DNA of 34,495 bases from the NCBI GenBank assembly GCA_010015585.1, contig ML975149.1; one strand, 5' to 3'. The position numbers were made by a program, and so were the translations under genes. Origin of the DNA: Eremomyces bilateralis CBS 781.70 (Eukaryota). Within the stretch, counting starts at the first letter, position 1; the number at the start of each line of letters is the position of its first letter. The notes under the pieces were generated by a model that saw only the letters and a list, made by a program, of their open reading frames with translations, made no database searches and was not told where the DNA came from. Below are positions 10,904 to 29,642 of this stretch, in pieces.

Positions 10904-11764
10904 ATGAGCCCGTCAATTGGGCCCATCCCCTCCGCCATGACATTTCCACGTCGCCTCCAACCCCTCTTCCACCGCCCCTCCCTCTCCCCCATTCTCCACG
11001 CCCGCTTCCCCCGACCTACCCCCTCCCCCTTCACAACCAGCGCCCTACGCCCCGCCGCCCGAAAACCCAAATCAAAAGCTCCCGTGCTCGAAAAACCGGA
11101 CGCGTTCCGACCCCCATCGCATGGCGCGCGGCTACCCCGACGGCGACCCGATGCCACGCGATATGGGCCGTCGTTGACGGAGGCGGAGGCGCAGACGCAG
11201 AAGACGAAGCAATATCCGCGGATGATGCCGCCGGAGGGGTCGTTTCTGCACTGGTTCCTGTCGGATCGGAGCATCCACGTATGGATATCGATGGTACGTA
11301 TTCAATTATCTATTCTAACGTTGGCTCGCTAATCCCGCAATCAGTCCGTCCTCCTCTCCCTCACCCTCGCCATGCTCCACAACCGCCTCTCCACCTTCCA
11401 GCAATCCGACCCCCTCGCCCTCGCCGTCGACCTCCCCCCGCCCTCCCACCTCATCACCCACCCGATCCGTACCATCCCGCAGTACCTCGCCATGTACCGC
11501 CTCACCGCCGAGCGCCGCAGCCAGGAGGTCGCGGAACGGAGACGGCAGCGGCAAGAGGATGCAGAGCGAAGGAGGGAGTTTCGGAAGGTGCATGGGGAGA
11601 CGGAGGGGTTCGAGGTGTTGGGGGTGAAGTTTGGGATGGAGGAGGAGGGGGAGAAGGGGGTGGAGAGCGCGGTGGATGGGGCGAGTCCGGTGGCAGTGGT
11701 GGGGCAGGGGGAGGATTTGGAGACGAGGAAGAAGCCGAAGAAGTGGTTTGGGATTTGGGAGTGA
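10904..11764 (+). CDS. Uncharacterised protein, probably mitochondrial single-pass membrane protein, 2 exons
   Basis: Arg/Ser/Pro-rich, acid-free N-terminus (presequence-like; the start could be 10937). PVLEKPDAFRPPSHGAR segment. Intron 11294-11344 (GTACGT..GCTAAT..CAG) joins two ORFs in frame and gives the hydrophobic stretch IHVWISMSVLLSLTLAML, then a charged coiled-coil-like region and C-terminal KKWFGIWE. Confidence 0.8.
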
Positions 11765-12785
11765 GGAGGCGCGAGGAAGAGAAGATGGACGTTGACGTAG
11801 AGACGGTTATGTACACTACGTTAAGGCCGTATATACCCTCATGTTGGAGAAATACGGCATGTATCAATATCACTCGACTCGAAGAAGTAACCACATCATT
11901 TTCCTTTATACTGAACTGCCAAAACGGTGCCTTAACTCCCCAAATTTCGATCCTGAATGAAAGTTCATCCCACCTAGAAATATGAGGACACCGTTCACCG
12001 GATCCAAGAATTCTTCACTGGAGACCAAGCCCTCACAACTCCAACCAGGATACATACCACCAGTCCCCAAGCATATTACGCATATTCAAACGGTCATTCT
12101 ACGATCACAATCACACCAACCCCACAACCCAGCAACTCAAACCAATGATATTGTCAAACTATCTCCAGTATTAAGGCCCTCTCCACCGGCCACCGCGCGA
12201 TCAAAAGCAGGGAAATGCAAAGCATCTTGGTATCAATAAGCAAAGCCAACGCAACAGACAGGGAAAAGCAGCGGAATCGCAATCCGATCCAGCCCCACGA
12301 GTCCGACCGAGCCCATACGAACCCGACCGACCCTCATGAGTCGAAACCGAACCACCATAATGTTCATGTCGAGGATCGATGATGATGATGTTGATGATGT
12401 CTGACGAACATAGGAAACAGGATGAAAAAAGCAACCAAGGAACGAATGCAGGAAAACTAAAACTAACAAACAACGAGACCGGGGTATCGGGTATAATTCG
12501 CAGCCCTGTCAAACCATCCCCTTTTCTTTCCATTCTTCTCTCCCACTCTCTCCTCCATGCCATCATATAAGGAACCCATTAAGAATCCGGAAAACGCGAG
12601 AAACATAGAAACCGTAGTGTGGTGGAGAAGGCATGAGTGAGCCGAGTCAAACCAAACCAACCGAACCGAACCGGATCGAGTTGAAGAAAAAAACACCGCA
12701 CCATACCATAGCGCAAAAACGACATCCCACACGAGCAAAAGAATCCAAGTATCCCACGAGCATCACCCTGAATACGTATCCTCCT

Positions 12786-13421
12786 TCACGAGCCATCCCG
12801 GCCCATCAGCGCTATTTCCTCCACCACCGACCCATCGCTCGCACGCATCGACCCCTCAGGCGTCGGTGCGGGAGCCGTCGAAATCGCACCATCATCAACC
12901 CCATCGCCACCAATCCCCCGATCGCTCCCACTCCTCTCACTCCCCCGCGTCCGCTTCCCACCGCCACCGTCATCCCCGCTGCCGTGCCGCTTCGCGATGC
13001 GCTGCGATCGGGGGTGACGGAACGAGTGGTGGGGTGTGTAGCGCGGGTTCGACGTTGGCGTAGGCTGAGGATCACCAGGACGGAAGGGGTCCGGCGGGGA
13101 AGAGCGACCGGGCACGGGGTTAGGGCCGGGGAACGGGACGGGTTCGGTGGGGGTGGGGGGAAGCGGGACTGCGGCGGTCGTCGCCGGAGATTGGAAGAGG
13201 GGTCGGAGCGGAAGCCCGCTAGAGATGCGGTTAGCAGCCACTTCCAGGGTTGATGCTAACGGGACGGAGTGGTGTCAGATCGGGGAGGGGACGGTCGCGT
13301 CAGGTCGTTTGTTCGGGGGGGGGGTTCAAGGTACCATATCTCATGCTGCTCGACAATGATACTCAAATTCTTGTGCTTTTCTTTTTGCTCATGCGGTAGT
13401 GTGCTTTTGGTTATGTGTGTG
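12786..13421 (-). CDS. Putative alternative 3' coding exons (13421-13335 and 13218-12786) of the PH-domain gene
   Basis: Donor GC|GTAGGT at 13526 overlaps the stop codon. Acceptor CTACAG| at 13422. 87-nt symmetric exon. Intron 13334-13219 has a GCTAAC branch and TCTCTAG acceptor. All junctions are phase 2 and the frame is open to TGA at 12786. Confidence 0.5.
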
Positions 13422-13522
13422 CTGTAGGTGCTCTTCAATTCAATTCCACTCCATCCGGCTCAGCCAGCTAGCTAGCTCGATCCAGCTCAGCTGCTCATCC
13501 TCCTCGCATCATCAAGGTCTAC

Positions 13523-16102
13523 CTACGCAGTCGCCTGAACCGTCTTCCCCGCTGGCGGCGGATCCGACACGGTCACGCTCTCTGCGGTGACATCGCCAAT
13601 TGCAGCCGGCTTCTCCTCCTTCGTGACTTCCGGCGTCGTGGTCTCAGGCTTGGTCTCCTCAGCTGGCTTGGCGGTTTCCTCGGTCGCGACAGCCTTCTCA
13701 TCGGCGGGCTTGGCCTCCTCAGCGAGCTTGGACGCCTCGCCCTTCTCGGTACTGGAGGTAGGCTTAGCAGCCTTGTCCTTGCCGCCCTTGATAATCTTGC
13801 TAAAGTTGCGGGACAGTCCGGAGAGGCCCTTGGAGACGTGGGACTTGGTCGTCTTCTCCTCCTTCTTCTCCGCAGACTTGGTCTCCTCGGCGGCGGGAGT
13901 CTCAGTGGCAGCAACCACAGGGGTAGCGGTCTCAGCAACGGCCTCAGCGGGTTTGTCAGCCTCAACAGTCTCGGTGGCGGCGGGAGTCTCAGTCTCCGCG
14001 GGCTTGGCGGCTTCCACGGGCTTGACCTCAGCAGGCTTCTTCTCACCGATCTTCTTCACGCTGCCGCCAAGAGAACCGAAGAAGCTTGACCTGCGCTTCT
14101 CAGATTTAGTGGGAGCGACAGGAGCAGCAGTCTCGGTGGTTGGCGAGGTGCCATTAACGGGCTCTTCAACCTTGGTAGGCTCGTCCTTAGCGGGGACGGC
14201 AGGAGCGGCTTCCTCGGCAGGCTTGGGAGTCTCTTCCGTGGCAGCAGGAGCAGGCAAGACGGGAGCAGTCTCGGTGGTGGGAGACTTGGACTTCTCGGAC
14301 TTGTGCTTGAAGATGCCGGAGATGAAGGACGGCTTGCGGTCAGTAGCAGGAGCAGTCGCAGTCGCGGCAGCGGGCTTGTCGGCTTCCTTGACGGGCTCCT
14401 CCGTGGCGGGAGCAACGACGGCAGGAGTCTCGGTCGCGGGGGTTTCGGTCGCGGGCTCAGTGGCAGCAGCCGCGGTTTCCTCTGCCTTGGTCTCCTCCGC
14501 CTTAGCGGCCGGGACAACTTCAGACTCCTTCTTCTCGTGGCTGGGGCTGCGGAGCTTCTGGACGCGCTCCTGGAGGCCGCCAAAGATGGAAGCGCGCTTA
14601 GCGGGCTTGGAAGTCTCAGTCGCTGGGGTAGCGGCTTCCTCCTTGGCCTCCTCCTTGGGAGCTTCGGTAGCTTCGGTGGTAGCCGGAGCATCTGGGATTT
14701 GCGTCAGTTATGCATTCACTAGGTTAATAAGAATCTCGAGGCTACTCACCGACAGCAGGCTCGACAGCAGCCGCGGCCTCAGTGGCAGGAGTCTCCTCTT
14801 CCTTGGTCTCAGTCTTCTTCTCCTCGGCCTTCTTGGCCTCTTCTTCCTTCTTGCTCAGGAAGCCGAACACGCTGCCACGCTTGCCACGGCTGATGGAACG
14901 AGACTTCTTCTCAGCGGCCGGGGCTGGGGTGGTGGTTTCAGCCTCAACCTTGGTTTCGGCGGGCTTGCTTTCGGCCTTGTCCTTGGTGGTAGCCGCGGTG
15001 GCAGGGGCAACTGCAGCGACGGTGTTTGGCTTGCCTGTTGGGAGGATGATATTAGCTTCATGGTAATAATTGAATTATTAATGTTTCGTTGAGTGAACTG
15101 GGGTGAAGCTAGCGCTGCTAAATTCAACGCGGCGTGATGGCCCTTGCAGGAGTGATGCAGGGGCAACGATGTTGCATGGGCTTGTGGGGAAGTCCGCATC
15201 AAAATTTTACTTTTGCACCTGGCAACAGCCGACGTGTAACCGTTTTCGAAAACACCACTCAAAATTGAAATTGGGGCAACATACCGAGCTCAGCAATGCT
15301 CGCCTTGTAGCCTTCGCTGTTGAGGATCTCCTCCTTCTTGGCCTTCGCATCCTCGGATGCGGCCTTCAGCGCCAACAACCATCCGTCACGCTCACGGCTA
15401 TTGATGGCCTCGAGGACGTGCTTCTCGGCCTTCTTCTCGCCATCGAGCTTGAAGGAGAGGTCTTGGATGCCGGATTTCTCGAGGTCAGTGATTTCAGCCT
15501 GTAGAACATTGATATTAGTTTGGTGTCCAGGTTGTTGTGAGGTATAGTCACGTGAACTTACCAGGTTGAACACGTGAGCGGGGGTAGCCTTGAGCTCAGC
15601 GGTCTTGGAGAAGAACAGCAGTCCCTTTCCGGTCTGCGAGGCCCAGGCAGCAGTGGGCTGAGAGATCTTCGGCTCTTCGCCACGAAGATACGAGGCAAGG
15701 CTCTGGGTTGAGACAGCCTCCTCGGTGCCGAGCCAGAAGTACTTCTTCTGAGGAACGAAGTGACTGATCACCAACAGTCAGCACCAATTCCAAATACACG
15801 AAAACATGCTGTCAGAGAAAGGGCCACACTTACGAAATATGGAGACCTGGAGCCTTGTACTTCAACGAACCCTCAGTGATCGGCTCGATGGGCTTAACAG
15901 CAGGCTTCTCCTTCTTCTCAACCGGCTTGGCCTCCTCCACAGCAGTAGCAGCAGGTTCAGCAGCAGGTTCGGCAGCCGTCTCAGCGGGCTTGTCCTCCAC
16001 AACGGGAGCTGCGGGAGTGGTGGTCTCTTCAGGCTTGGTGACCTCGACAACGGCAGCCGGAGCGTCGGCGACGACAGTGGGCTTGGTGGCTTCGGTCGAC
16101 AT
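13523..16102 (-). CDS. Meu6-like pleckstrin-homology (PH_6-type) domain protein with long A/E/K/P/T-rich disordered tail, 5 exons (short isoform)
   Basis: ATG at 16102. Introns 15833-15764, 15561-15499, 15284-15035 and 14749-14692 all keep frame. PH-like segment EGSLKYKAPG..KKYFWLG..AAWASQTGKGLLFFSK..FNLAEI..ERDGWLLALK. Strong codon bias. Family name is from recall. Confidence 0.82.
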
Positions 16103-16537
16103 GGTTGATGATGAGGGTGATTATAAGTTTGTTGGTGTATGGGGTATCTCTGTTTTGCAAATGCAAAAGAAGCAAACAAGAAGTAATCTCGAGGGTTGCG
16201 TGACTAGGTTTTTTGTAAGAGTCCAGGACTTTTTTGGCGAATGAAGCGGGTGAGAAATGACTGGTTTCTTTGCGAAAGAAAAACAACAAGCACACTCAGA
16301 TGAGGTGGGTGTTTGTGTTGAGTTGGTTGGGGGAGAGGAGGGAAGACGAATTCATGCGAATCGTCCGCAACAAACAAACGAGGAGTCAAAAGAGGCAGGA
16401 GAGATGACATACCTAGAAGTAGCGATGGAAGTTGCTACGGTAATTACAAGTCGGTGATGATGACAACGATAATAGTTGCCAAGTCTCACGAAGAATTGGA
16501 AGTCTGGGAAATGAAACGCGAAGCTTCAGAATGAGCT

Positions 16538-28078: not shown

Positions 28079-29642
28079 CCTCCGGGGGGGACGAAATTGA
28101 ATTACGTTTCTTGGCATTCCCCCAACCATACAGCTCCCGCGACCTTAACCACCAACTTCTGACTATCATCAACTTACTCTACCGCATTCAATGTTTGATG
28201 GATTCTTGTCCAAATACGCCAGATAAACCGATTAAACGTCATGAATACACTACAACCAAAAAATCACACTTTTTCGCGCTCTACGACAACCGGAATGACG
28301 GCGAAAAGGTGCCTACCGTTTGCAAACGCCTTGACTTTCGCCTTGAACCTGCAACTGCGAGAACATGGCTGCGTCATCGGCTCATCGCGGTAAAGTCGGA
28401 GACCGTGTATGTCGGCGATCGCGCAGAATAAGCGATGAATTAGGGCGAAATCGAGCTATTTCTAACCCTCAATTGGATATGATATTATCCCCAGGCAATC
28501 CTGTTCGAGACCGTCCTCATGAGGCTAATATTGAATGGTTTAACTTTGATATCACGCCTCGTCGCCTGCGCGCAAACCTCCGCGATCGTCGTAAAGCCTC
28601 GCGTTTTAAGATGGAGCAAGTCAAACCCATTTCAGCTAAGAATAAGAGAGAGAGAATGGACTATGGGCGCTTCGGAATGGAACAGCCCCTCTTCGGATAT
28701 TGGGATCAGATTGATTTTACGGACGAGGCGCATGTCGACCCCAACGAGCAGACAAAAGGGCGGGTTATACGAGAGGAAGGCAAGCGGCTTGAGCCTGAAA
28801 ACCTACAGGCTAGGCCTAAGAGGTCTGGAAATGCTCTTCATTTTGCAGCCTCTATTTCATACTGGCATAAGGGCGAGCTCAATTCTATCACGACAAGTCT
28901 GAAGACCCTCCGAAGGCCCCTAAGCGACCGCGAATGCCCCGGAAAAGTAGTGTAGAAACGGTCGAAGAGTATGAAGCGAAATTAGCGAAATGGAACGACG
29001 AATCGCACCATCCTGTGGAGGTAAAGAGGAAAGGAAATTCTATGACAGCCAAATATTACGCCGAGAACCTCCTCCCTCTATATATCGACGAGATTAACGC
29101 CGCGCGCGTGGAGCGCGACGGGGGTTGTTTTGGAGTCGATGATTGGGGGGATGGAGCTCATATGATACTTCAGGAGGATAATGATCGATCACATGGGACG
29201 ACGCAGGGCAAGAGTCTACCTCGTAGCCTCAAGGATCGATGTTGGATCTATCGATTGAAGCATCCTGCGCAGTCGCCTAATCTTAACCCGATTGAAGCGA
29301 TTTGGGGCATCCTCAAGCAGCGTATTAAGCGTAGAATATGGGATACCCTAGACGAACTGAAACAGATACTGGTTGAGGAGTGGGAAAAGATCACGATGGA
29401 GGAAATCCGGGCGCGAATCGCAGAGATGCGGCTTCGCTGTAGGATGGTGGTAGACCGCGGCGGAGAATTCGTCAAAACAGACCTCTGGTAATCGCCGAGT
29501 TAGGAAAAGAGTACACTTTTTGATATTATGCTACTTTTGAGCGAATTGGACCTGCCCGTGCGAAGCGCGGTCTGCCTGTGATGGTGGTCATGGTCGTTGG
29601 GGGAATGCCAAGAAAAGTAATTCAATTTCGTCCCCCCGGAGG
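28079..29642 (+). mobile_element. Tc1-like (IS630-Tc1-mariner superfamily) DNA transposon, 1564 bp, with inactivated transposase
   Basis: TIRs 28079-28126 and 29596-29642 (CCTCCGGGGGG(G)ACGAAATTGAATTACKTTTCTTGGCATTCCCCCAAC; 1 mismatch plus 1 G indel). TAG on both flanks. Internal DDE transposase. Confidence 0.93.
28198..29491 (+). pseudogene. Tc1-like DDE transposase with two frameshifts
   Basis: ATG at 28198. Motifs WDQIDFTDEAH, GNSMTAKYYAENLLP, ILQEDNDRSH and HPAQSPNLNPIEAIWGILK. Frameshifts at about 28375-28388 (8-bp imperfect duplication) and about 28881 (1-nt loss). Confidence 0.88.

Follow-up and report, generated by a model that had tools for sequence, protein, structure and literature searches.

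The stretch of DNA analysed here (the window: 34,495 nucleotides of contig ML975149.1, assembly GCA_010015585.1) comes from Eremomyces bilateralis CBS 781.70, a Dothideomycete of uncertain placement, and carries on its minus strand a gene for a PH_6 (Meu6-like) protein. The stop codon of this gene overlaps a sequence resembling a 5′ splice site, and an earlier note, made from the sequence alone, had predicted that splicing there switches the gene to a longer isoform. The observations are best explained by a gene from which probably only the short protein of 712 amino acids (aa) is made, with a long 3′ untranslated region (UTR) behind it. An extended form does not appear to be made at a meaningful level, and it is doubtful that this fungus has some C-terminal extension at this place. 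The gene model, the conserved C-terminal tip, the motif scores and the absence of a tail on the unspliced sequence are direct observations. The most solid new result lies in the relatives, where orthologues carry over the same stop codon a short +1-frame tail under purifying selection. The window by itself offers a splice prediction, unproven; the relatives offer a well-supported hidden coding tail in the orthologues' "3′ UTR", carried by no database protein.

The PH_6 gene and its C-terminal tip

Five coding exons (16102-13523, minus strand) are separated by four GT-AG introns of 70, 63, 250 and 58 nt:

15834..16102, minus strand: coding exon 1 of the PH_6 (Meu6-like) gene, with the ATG at 16102; the model equals the database protein
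15562..15763, minus strand: coding exon 2, start of the PH domain; gene model and domain match
15285..15498, minus strand: coding exon 3, remainder of the PH domain; gene model and domain match
14750..15034, minus strand: coding exon 4, preceded by the 250-nt intron; gene model
13523..14691, minus strand: coding exon 5, ending with the IGDV...VQATA tip and TAG (13525-13523); gene model, tip conserved in the family

The 712-aa product of this model is identical, letter for letter, to the Eremomyces bilateralis record P0001, whose protein cluster has one member (712 aa) and contains no longer form. The PH_6 domain (PF15406) was found at residues 92-203 with 86.8 bits against a curated cut-off of 30, which places the protein in this family. 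The body of the protein is long and rich in Ala, Glu, Thr, Pro and Lys, and the domain, the body and the tip are shared with the PH_6/fission-yeast Meu6-like proteins of filamentous ascomycetes. No function for these proteins was found in the literature: no paper on PF15406 turned up, and meu6 stands in PMC7712723 as a table row.

The tip [VI]-x-[AST]-[ASTF]-[AV] closes 81 of the 86 PH-domain homologues (P0001 counted in); in the remaining five the tip is missing altogether, with no run past its position, and none has motifs of the relatives' tail. Because 81 homologues end at the shared tip, the stop position is held across Pezizomycotina. The gene would yield one functional protein, the 712-aa PH_6 protein, and its free V-x-A-x-A tip, kept across Pezizomycotina, is probably functional and probably binds a partner via the carboxyl end. 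The comparison also points to the tip as a regulated binding end, which would give a first handle on the function of the family.

A +1-frame tail in the relatives

Scanning metagenome contigs for the motif turned up 20 loci, of which 19 are orthologues; L005 was dropped, having no stop at the motif. The best named matches for most loci were Pleosporales genera, among them Didymella, Nothophoma, Periconia and Delitschia, with 49-86% identity. Sixteen of the 19 loci have a +1 frame that stays open across the stop for 26-29 codons, without an intron or an annotated product, and follows the pattern K-V-W-W-(E/D)-D...H-D-G-x-T-E-K...S-L-(V/I/F), after which a stop is reached. Two of these loci are given here, and the other 14 carry the tail too:

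L002, 656-739, plus strand: +1 tail
L012, 2377-2463, minus strand: +1 tail

Selection on the tail was analysed in 10 distinct loci, with six near-duplicates set aside. The ratio of non-synonymous to synonymous differences (pN/pS) was 0.29, against 0.275 for the last 25 codons of the main open reading frame (ORF), and none of 2000 column permutations reached such a ratio in any frame. The other five frames over the tail gave 0.46-1.44 and contain internal stops; antisense coding was rejected on these ratios and on internal stops in 3-7 of the 10 loci. Third positions are the most variable (20 of 28 columns, vs 10 and 12; P 0.009), tail lengths change by multiples of three, a rule kept in 0 of 42 downstream UTR windows, and DNA identity drops from 0.74 to 0.49 immediately past the tail stop. 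In-frame readthrough and A-to-I editing were also rejected: the tail lies in the +1 frame, and frame 0 closes after 4-112 codons, patternless. Protein searches brought three further tail ORFs, which are stand-alone frame calls, unnamed and unfused to a PH protein; two other candidates were set aside, P0088 as a probable chimera and P0091 as an unrelated repeat protein. No fused PH-tail protein was present among the database matches, and no published description of the tail was found in a search whose coverage left most subscription papers and supplements outside.

Four observations speak against a purely coding reading of the tail. In L006 the tail's DNA blocks persist (about 2182-2090, minus strand; nhmmer E 2e-6) with the frame broken twice, for which a decayed tail, an assembly error and an RNA element are candidates; L020 resembles the tail block and stops after 16 codons; L013 has no likeness to the block; and some of the block does not vary at all, third positions included. 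The tail may be built on an RNA element or coexist with one. The tail is very probably coding.

A +1 shift at the stop is the best fit for how the tail is entered, because four of the 16 loci have the +1 frame closed 14 codons upstream of the stop, no intron is present, the Lys codon of L009 is AAA and so offers no in-phase AG, and a purine ends the last codon in all 16; minor splice forms might still provide another route. The layout at the stop is identical in genomic and spliced contigs; six contigs, which represent spliced RNA, have the entire PH domain in an ORF of 572-688 aa free of introns, and five of them read unspliced through GCG-TAA-G. All 16 loci with the tail have GCG, GCA or GTG as P-site codon, whereas 171 of 217 Ala codons in the body are GCT or GCC; a dual-coding constraint could also explain the purine-ending codon. 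Given that the tail is coding, it is probably entered by a +1 frameshift at GC(G/A)-UAA; taken alone, the compound statement that the relatives' tail is coding and made by a +1 shift would stand at about even.

In PMC1874602, GCG-UGA or GCG-UAG are given as the yeast antizyme +1 shift sites, and PMC9841425 describes the P-site codon as steering the frame in antizyme-type shifting. The relatives differ from antizyme in that ORF1 is the whole protein, the +1 part is a short tail and the stop is UAA; GCA and GTG, which occur as well, lie outside the P-site table of PMC1874602, so that GCG alone of the three is a listed antizyme site. In the window, unlike antizyme, the unspliced +1 frame closes after one codon, at a TAG.

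To our knowledge, programmed +1 frameshifting is established for few cellular genes (antizyme and a handful of yeast genes). If true, a conserved +1 frameshift shared by so large an order, one of moulds and fungi associated with plants, would be a genuine gain to this short list. The S-L-V/I/F end of the tail we liken to a class I PDZ ligand. Eight codons before the stop, CCG-AAA-AGC is kept at DNA level in 8 of the 10 distinct loci (L002, L004, L008, L011, L012, L015, L017 and L018); these codons, seemingly rare for the gene, might stimulate the shift or act as another slip site.

Tail profiles matched nothing in the window region, neither of the exons proposed there included. A weak DNA likeness was obtained between 7 of 13 post-stop blocks of the relatives and about 13436-13369 of the window (summed-z P 0.010, post hoc and not composition-matched); at the peptide level, the likeness of the window's post-stop stretch to the relatives' block gave P 0.076. 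The string IWYLEP near 13340, considered as a relic of VWWEDP, ranked 19 of 68,938, as expected by chance, and was rejected. If only the short protein is made in the window, the Pleosporales-like +1 tail would be real and would have no detectable counterpart there.

The 3′ UTR and its ATACCC elements

The earlier note had read 12000-12780 as a minus-strand 3′ UTR, a proposal supported by one element that also occurs in the relatives:

12482..12501, minus strand: tandem ATACCC (Khd4-type) 3′-UTR element common to the relatives; pattern match in orthologue loci

Among the orthologue loci, 15 of 19 show the tandem pattern between +390 and +418 from the stop, and its core has no occurrence in 1.2 million control bases; it was drawn after viewing both the window and the relatives, and nhmmer did not recover the element. 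Because the ATACCC element at 12501-12482 is conserved, the mRNA is suggested to run at least 1 kb past the stop, across the whole region, which would make the UTR of the window about 620 nt longer than that of the relatives, with 13522-12480 as a long 3′ UTR. No Rfam match was found in window positions 12000-13600 or in the 4 of 19 orthologue loci scanned.

AUACCC is described as the Khd4 mRNA-stability element of Ustilago maydis (PMC10450656). Here it occurs in the 3′ and 5′ UTRs of the window gene and in the 3′ UTRs of the relatives; binding is known in a basidiomycete only. Five ATACCC copies lie in the 5′ leader at 16622-16538 (minus strand) and one more at 16147, after the leader intron, a candidate 5′-UTR intron of 263 nt (16412-16150, minus strand, GTATGT...CAG); these six are among the 14 minus-strand, Khd4-type copies of the window. 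In the 3′ UTRs of the Pleosporales-like loci (L002-L021), several other blocks are conserved too and contain (G)ATACC in repeated copies.

Splice sites around the stop codon

Scoring was based on a genome sample of 60 stretches of 10 kb, with a coding model self-trained on 139 ORFs and splice matrices self-trained on 52 introns, both unannotated; the training introns were chosen partly by branch score, so that the percentiles are rough. The real introns of the PH_6 gene have donors of 4.2-10.7 and branches of 8.6-10.9 at 13-18 nt. The features behind the gene are:

13517..13526, minus strand: two GT donors 4 nt apart spanning the stop, GTAGGT at 13526 (stop removed) and GTAGAC at 13522 (stop kept); both weak
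13422..13526, minus strand: 105-nt intron of the earlier note; probably no intron, without a branch point and purine-rich
13335..13421, minus strand: 87-nt exon of the earlier note; A-rich, no coding signal (score about 0); 13434-13369 faintly like the relatives' conserved post-stop block
13219..13235, minus strand: TAG acceptor with its last base at 13219, behind a strong GCTAAC branch point (13235-13230); score 17.5
12786..13218, minus strand: segment of 69% GC in which a 143-codon frame is open and matches the phase of the 13526 donor; best of six frames by a small margin

The layout behind the predicted switch was recovered in the sequence. GTAGGT from 13526 overlaps the last Ala codon and TAG; 13526-13422 covers 105 nt with a CTACAG end, 13421-13335 covers 87 nt, and 13334-13219 covers 116 nt, from GTACCT to GCTAAC...TCTCTAG. 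Every junction of this two-intron path is in phase 2, and the product would have 884 aa (+172). The donors had been called non-optimal, and they lie at the bottom of the genome's range: GTAGGT scored 3.6 and GTACCT 3.2. The post-stop donor scored 2.5. A score of 3.6 or lower occurs in one of the 52 trained introns, two of which have GTAGGT as donor hexamer; GTACCT is without a +5 G, and neither so low a score nor a +5 C is found among the 52. At 42 control gene ends of the genome, GT occupies the stop-overlapping place in 11, with a +5 G in five and an equally high score in one. The donor-like stop is only partly beyond chance, because stop codons resemble donors by nature (GT in 11 of 42 controls).

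Conservation of a donor at the stop, suggested as a check, was not found: the GCGTAGGT/GCGTAAGT form occurs in 0 of 19 orthologue loci, GT is missing in seven, and none has T at +6. The last codon and stop read GCG-TAA-G in eight loci, GCA-TAA in five, GTG-TAA in three, and GCG-TAA-A, GCT-TAA and GCC-TAG in one each. A conserved downstream frame together with a donor was likewise absent from these 19 loci, which are distant relatives only.

Splicing of both 13526-13422 and 13334-13219, to give the 884-aa isoform, is regarded as highly unlikely. Its phases are compatible, its second intron has a strong 3′ end, the 87-nt stretch is weakly like the block behind the stop in the relatives, and with about 105 nt taken out it would lie at a similar distance from the stop. 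Against this, the candidate branch of the 105-nt intron is unusable (best score 0.2 at 39 nt from the acceptor, vs 8.6-10.9 in real introns; none of the 52 trained introns is as low), and the intron is 64% purine, with values of at least 0.63 in one of 52. Non-coding DNA has 12.6 acceptors per kb of the quality of 13422, GTACCT is without its +5 G, the 87-nt exon scores near zero, and the peptide likeness to the relatives is the P 0.076 given above. With the branch missing, weak donors, the first of them unconserved, and no homologue of the exons, this exact isoform is unsupported.

A number of points nevertheless weigh against the view that only the short protein is made. At 17.5, the 13219 acceptor has two equals or betters among 203,594 non-coding bases; no acceptor within 400 nt past the 42 control stops exceeds 14.9, and the maximum in the 19 orthologue loci is 15.1. 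The 143-codon frame ranks first of six, with 0.103 per base (real exons 0.07-0.14), and a margin as small as its own occurs in 70 of 328 held-out coding chunks. Only 0-7 of 1000 shuffles (7/1000 for dinucleotide shuffles) keep the frame open with an equally good score, and GC at +200 to +700 past the stop is 0.68, while the highest value among 40 control gene ends is 0.65. The ATACCC element lies 285 nt from the long-form stop, near the relatives' distance of about 305-330 from the tail stop, whereas from the normal stop it lies 1024 nt away, vs 390-418 in the relatives. The splice model is self-trained on branch-selected introns and hence harsh on weak branches, assemblies reveal major forms only, and the relatives do possess an alternative C-terminus at the same stop.

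The lead of the 143-codon frame over the next sense frame is 0.021, vs 0.086-0.127 in five real exon tests, and this small margin neither shows nor excludes coding. Its frame contrast against local shuffles has P 0.19, vs 0/1000 for exons 2, 3 and 5; composition-keeping shuffles leave all 143 codons open in 13-24% of cases, and over 13217-12830 three of the six frames contain no stop. The C-rich to G-rich gradient, invoked earlier as a mark of real genes, does exist; it is strand-symmetric and flat over codon positions (0.98, 0.90, 0.81), unlike the genome's strong-gradient ORFs, 36 of 45 of which carry it mainly at codon position 3. Many genes of the genome pass from C-rich to G-rich along their length, e.g., window 11333-11764 (plus strand). 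A long hairpin behind the gradient was ruled out, as 98 of 100 shuffles fold equally well.

Neither added exon matched a Pfam family. The exact look-up was negative and the Atlas search gave no usable match, weak blanks given the low-complexity sequence; against 355 candidates (proteins of 78-251 aa only) nothing reached E 1 or better, again a weak blank for the same reason. The suggested SH3-ligand function found no footing, as seven PxxP in a stretch of 18% Pro are uninformative.

A single intron from 13526 to 13219, absent from the earlier note, would take out 308 nt in the same phase, delete the stop and add 143 Pro/Gly/Ser/Arg-rich residues, giving 855 aa; this long form would mask the tip, and unspliced or post-stop-spliced mRNA would give the 712-aa protein. 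At motif level it pairs the best donor with the best acceptor, whose branch scores 12.8 at 13 nt, and a 250-nt intron is already present in the gene. The frame is the best of six and GC-rich, and the UTR length past the long stop fits the relatives. The donor, as low in only one of 52 introns, is unconserved; no acceptor above 15.1 was found within 700 nt past the stop in any of the 19 orthologue loci, the added segment has no homologue, and its periodicity is weak. The 308-nt intron form is probably the likeliest among the extended forms, though unlikely in itself. The broader idea of an alternative C-terminus at this stop gains support from the selected +1 tail of the relatives and from this in-phase intron; the 884-aa isoform is unsupported.

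Two donors 4 nt apart over the stop are found at 13526/13522, at motif level. In human and mouse, tandem 5′ splice donors with this spacing give out-of-frame alternatives, as reported by Bortfeldt et al. 2008 (PMC2423196). The window pair likewise has 4-nt spacing, and one donor would remove and one keep the stop; it differs from the pairs of that source in being putative, weak and unconserved. On a spliced mRNA that keeps the stop, the downstream frame would sit in the +1 register over it. The earlier note had taken exclusive use of the post-stop donor (TAG/GTAGAC) as fatal to an extension, which is too strict, because such use would set the same downstream frame in the +1 register across the stop, where the relatives have their tail. 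A post-stop intron of 304 nt (13522 to 13219) or 101 nt (13522 to 13422), followed by a ribosomal +1 shift at GCG-UAG, would exploit the donor spacing, a codon pair listed among the antizyme sites in PMC1874602, and a register selected in the relatives. It is very unlikely: the donor, with +5 A, scores lowest of all, neither window exon is significantly like the relatives' tail by profile, and two unproven steps are needed.

That the window fungus reaches the +1 register via the tandem donors and the 13219 acceptor, adding 143 residues, is rather unlikely. A joint scheme, in which an old C-terminal switch at the family stop works by a +1 shift in the Pleosporales-like fungi and by tandem donors and 13219 in the window, with the tip masked and replaced, seems improbable.

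Positions 13330-12780 might also be a separate small gene or an antisense unit in or against the 3′ UTR, e.g., from the plus-strand ATG at 12633 (206 codons). The stretch has its own strand-symmetric C-rich to G-rich course, and the plus-strand frame is stop-free with an ATG. This is quite improbable: that frame scores 0.054 per base, vs 0.103, minus-strand ATGs spliced to 13219 lead into different frames, and the conserved UTR element of the PH gene sits beyond the unit. The ORF itself (12633-13253, plus strand) is antisense to the 3′ UTR, with a low coding score.

If, as preferred here, only the short protein is made, the "donor in the stop" would reflect the usual resemblance between G+TAG+G and a 5′ splice site, the 105-nt intron would be unused, and the 13219 acceptor would be unused, part of a UTR intron, or the site of trace splicing without a selected product.

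Cryptic C-terminal isoforms of fungal enzymes arise by alternative splicing or readthrough, according to PMC4207609. A hidden extension behind the normal stop is common to those and the present case, which differs from them in having no peroxisomal signal and, in the relatives, a tail in +1 and not in frame. The PTS1 tripeptide, judged by its consensus, is absent from the modelled long forms, which end ...RDGS or ...TPSR, and from the relatives' tails (S-L-V/I/F).

Elsewhere in the window, two ORFs at 28347-29491 resemble what we take to be a DDE transposase remnant (HPAQSPNLNPIEAIW-type motif).

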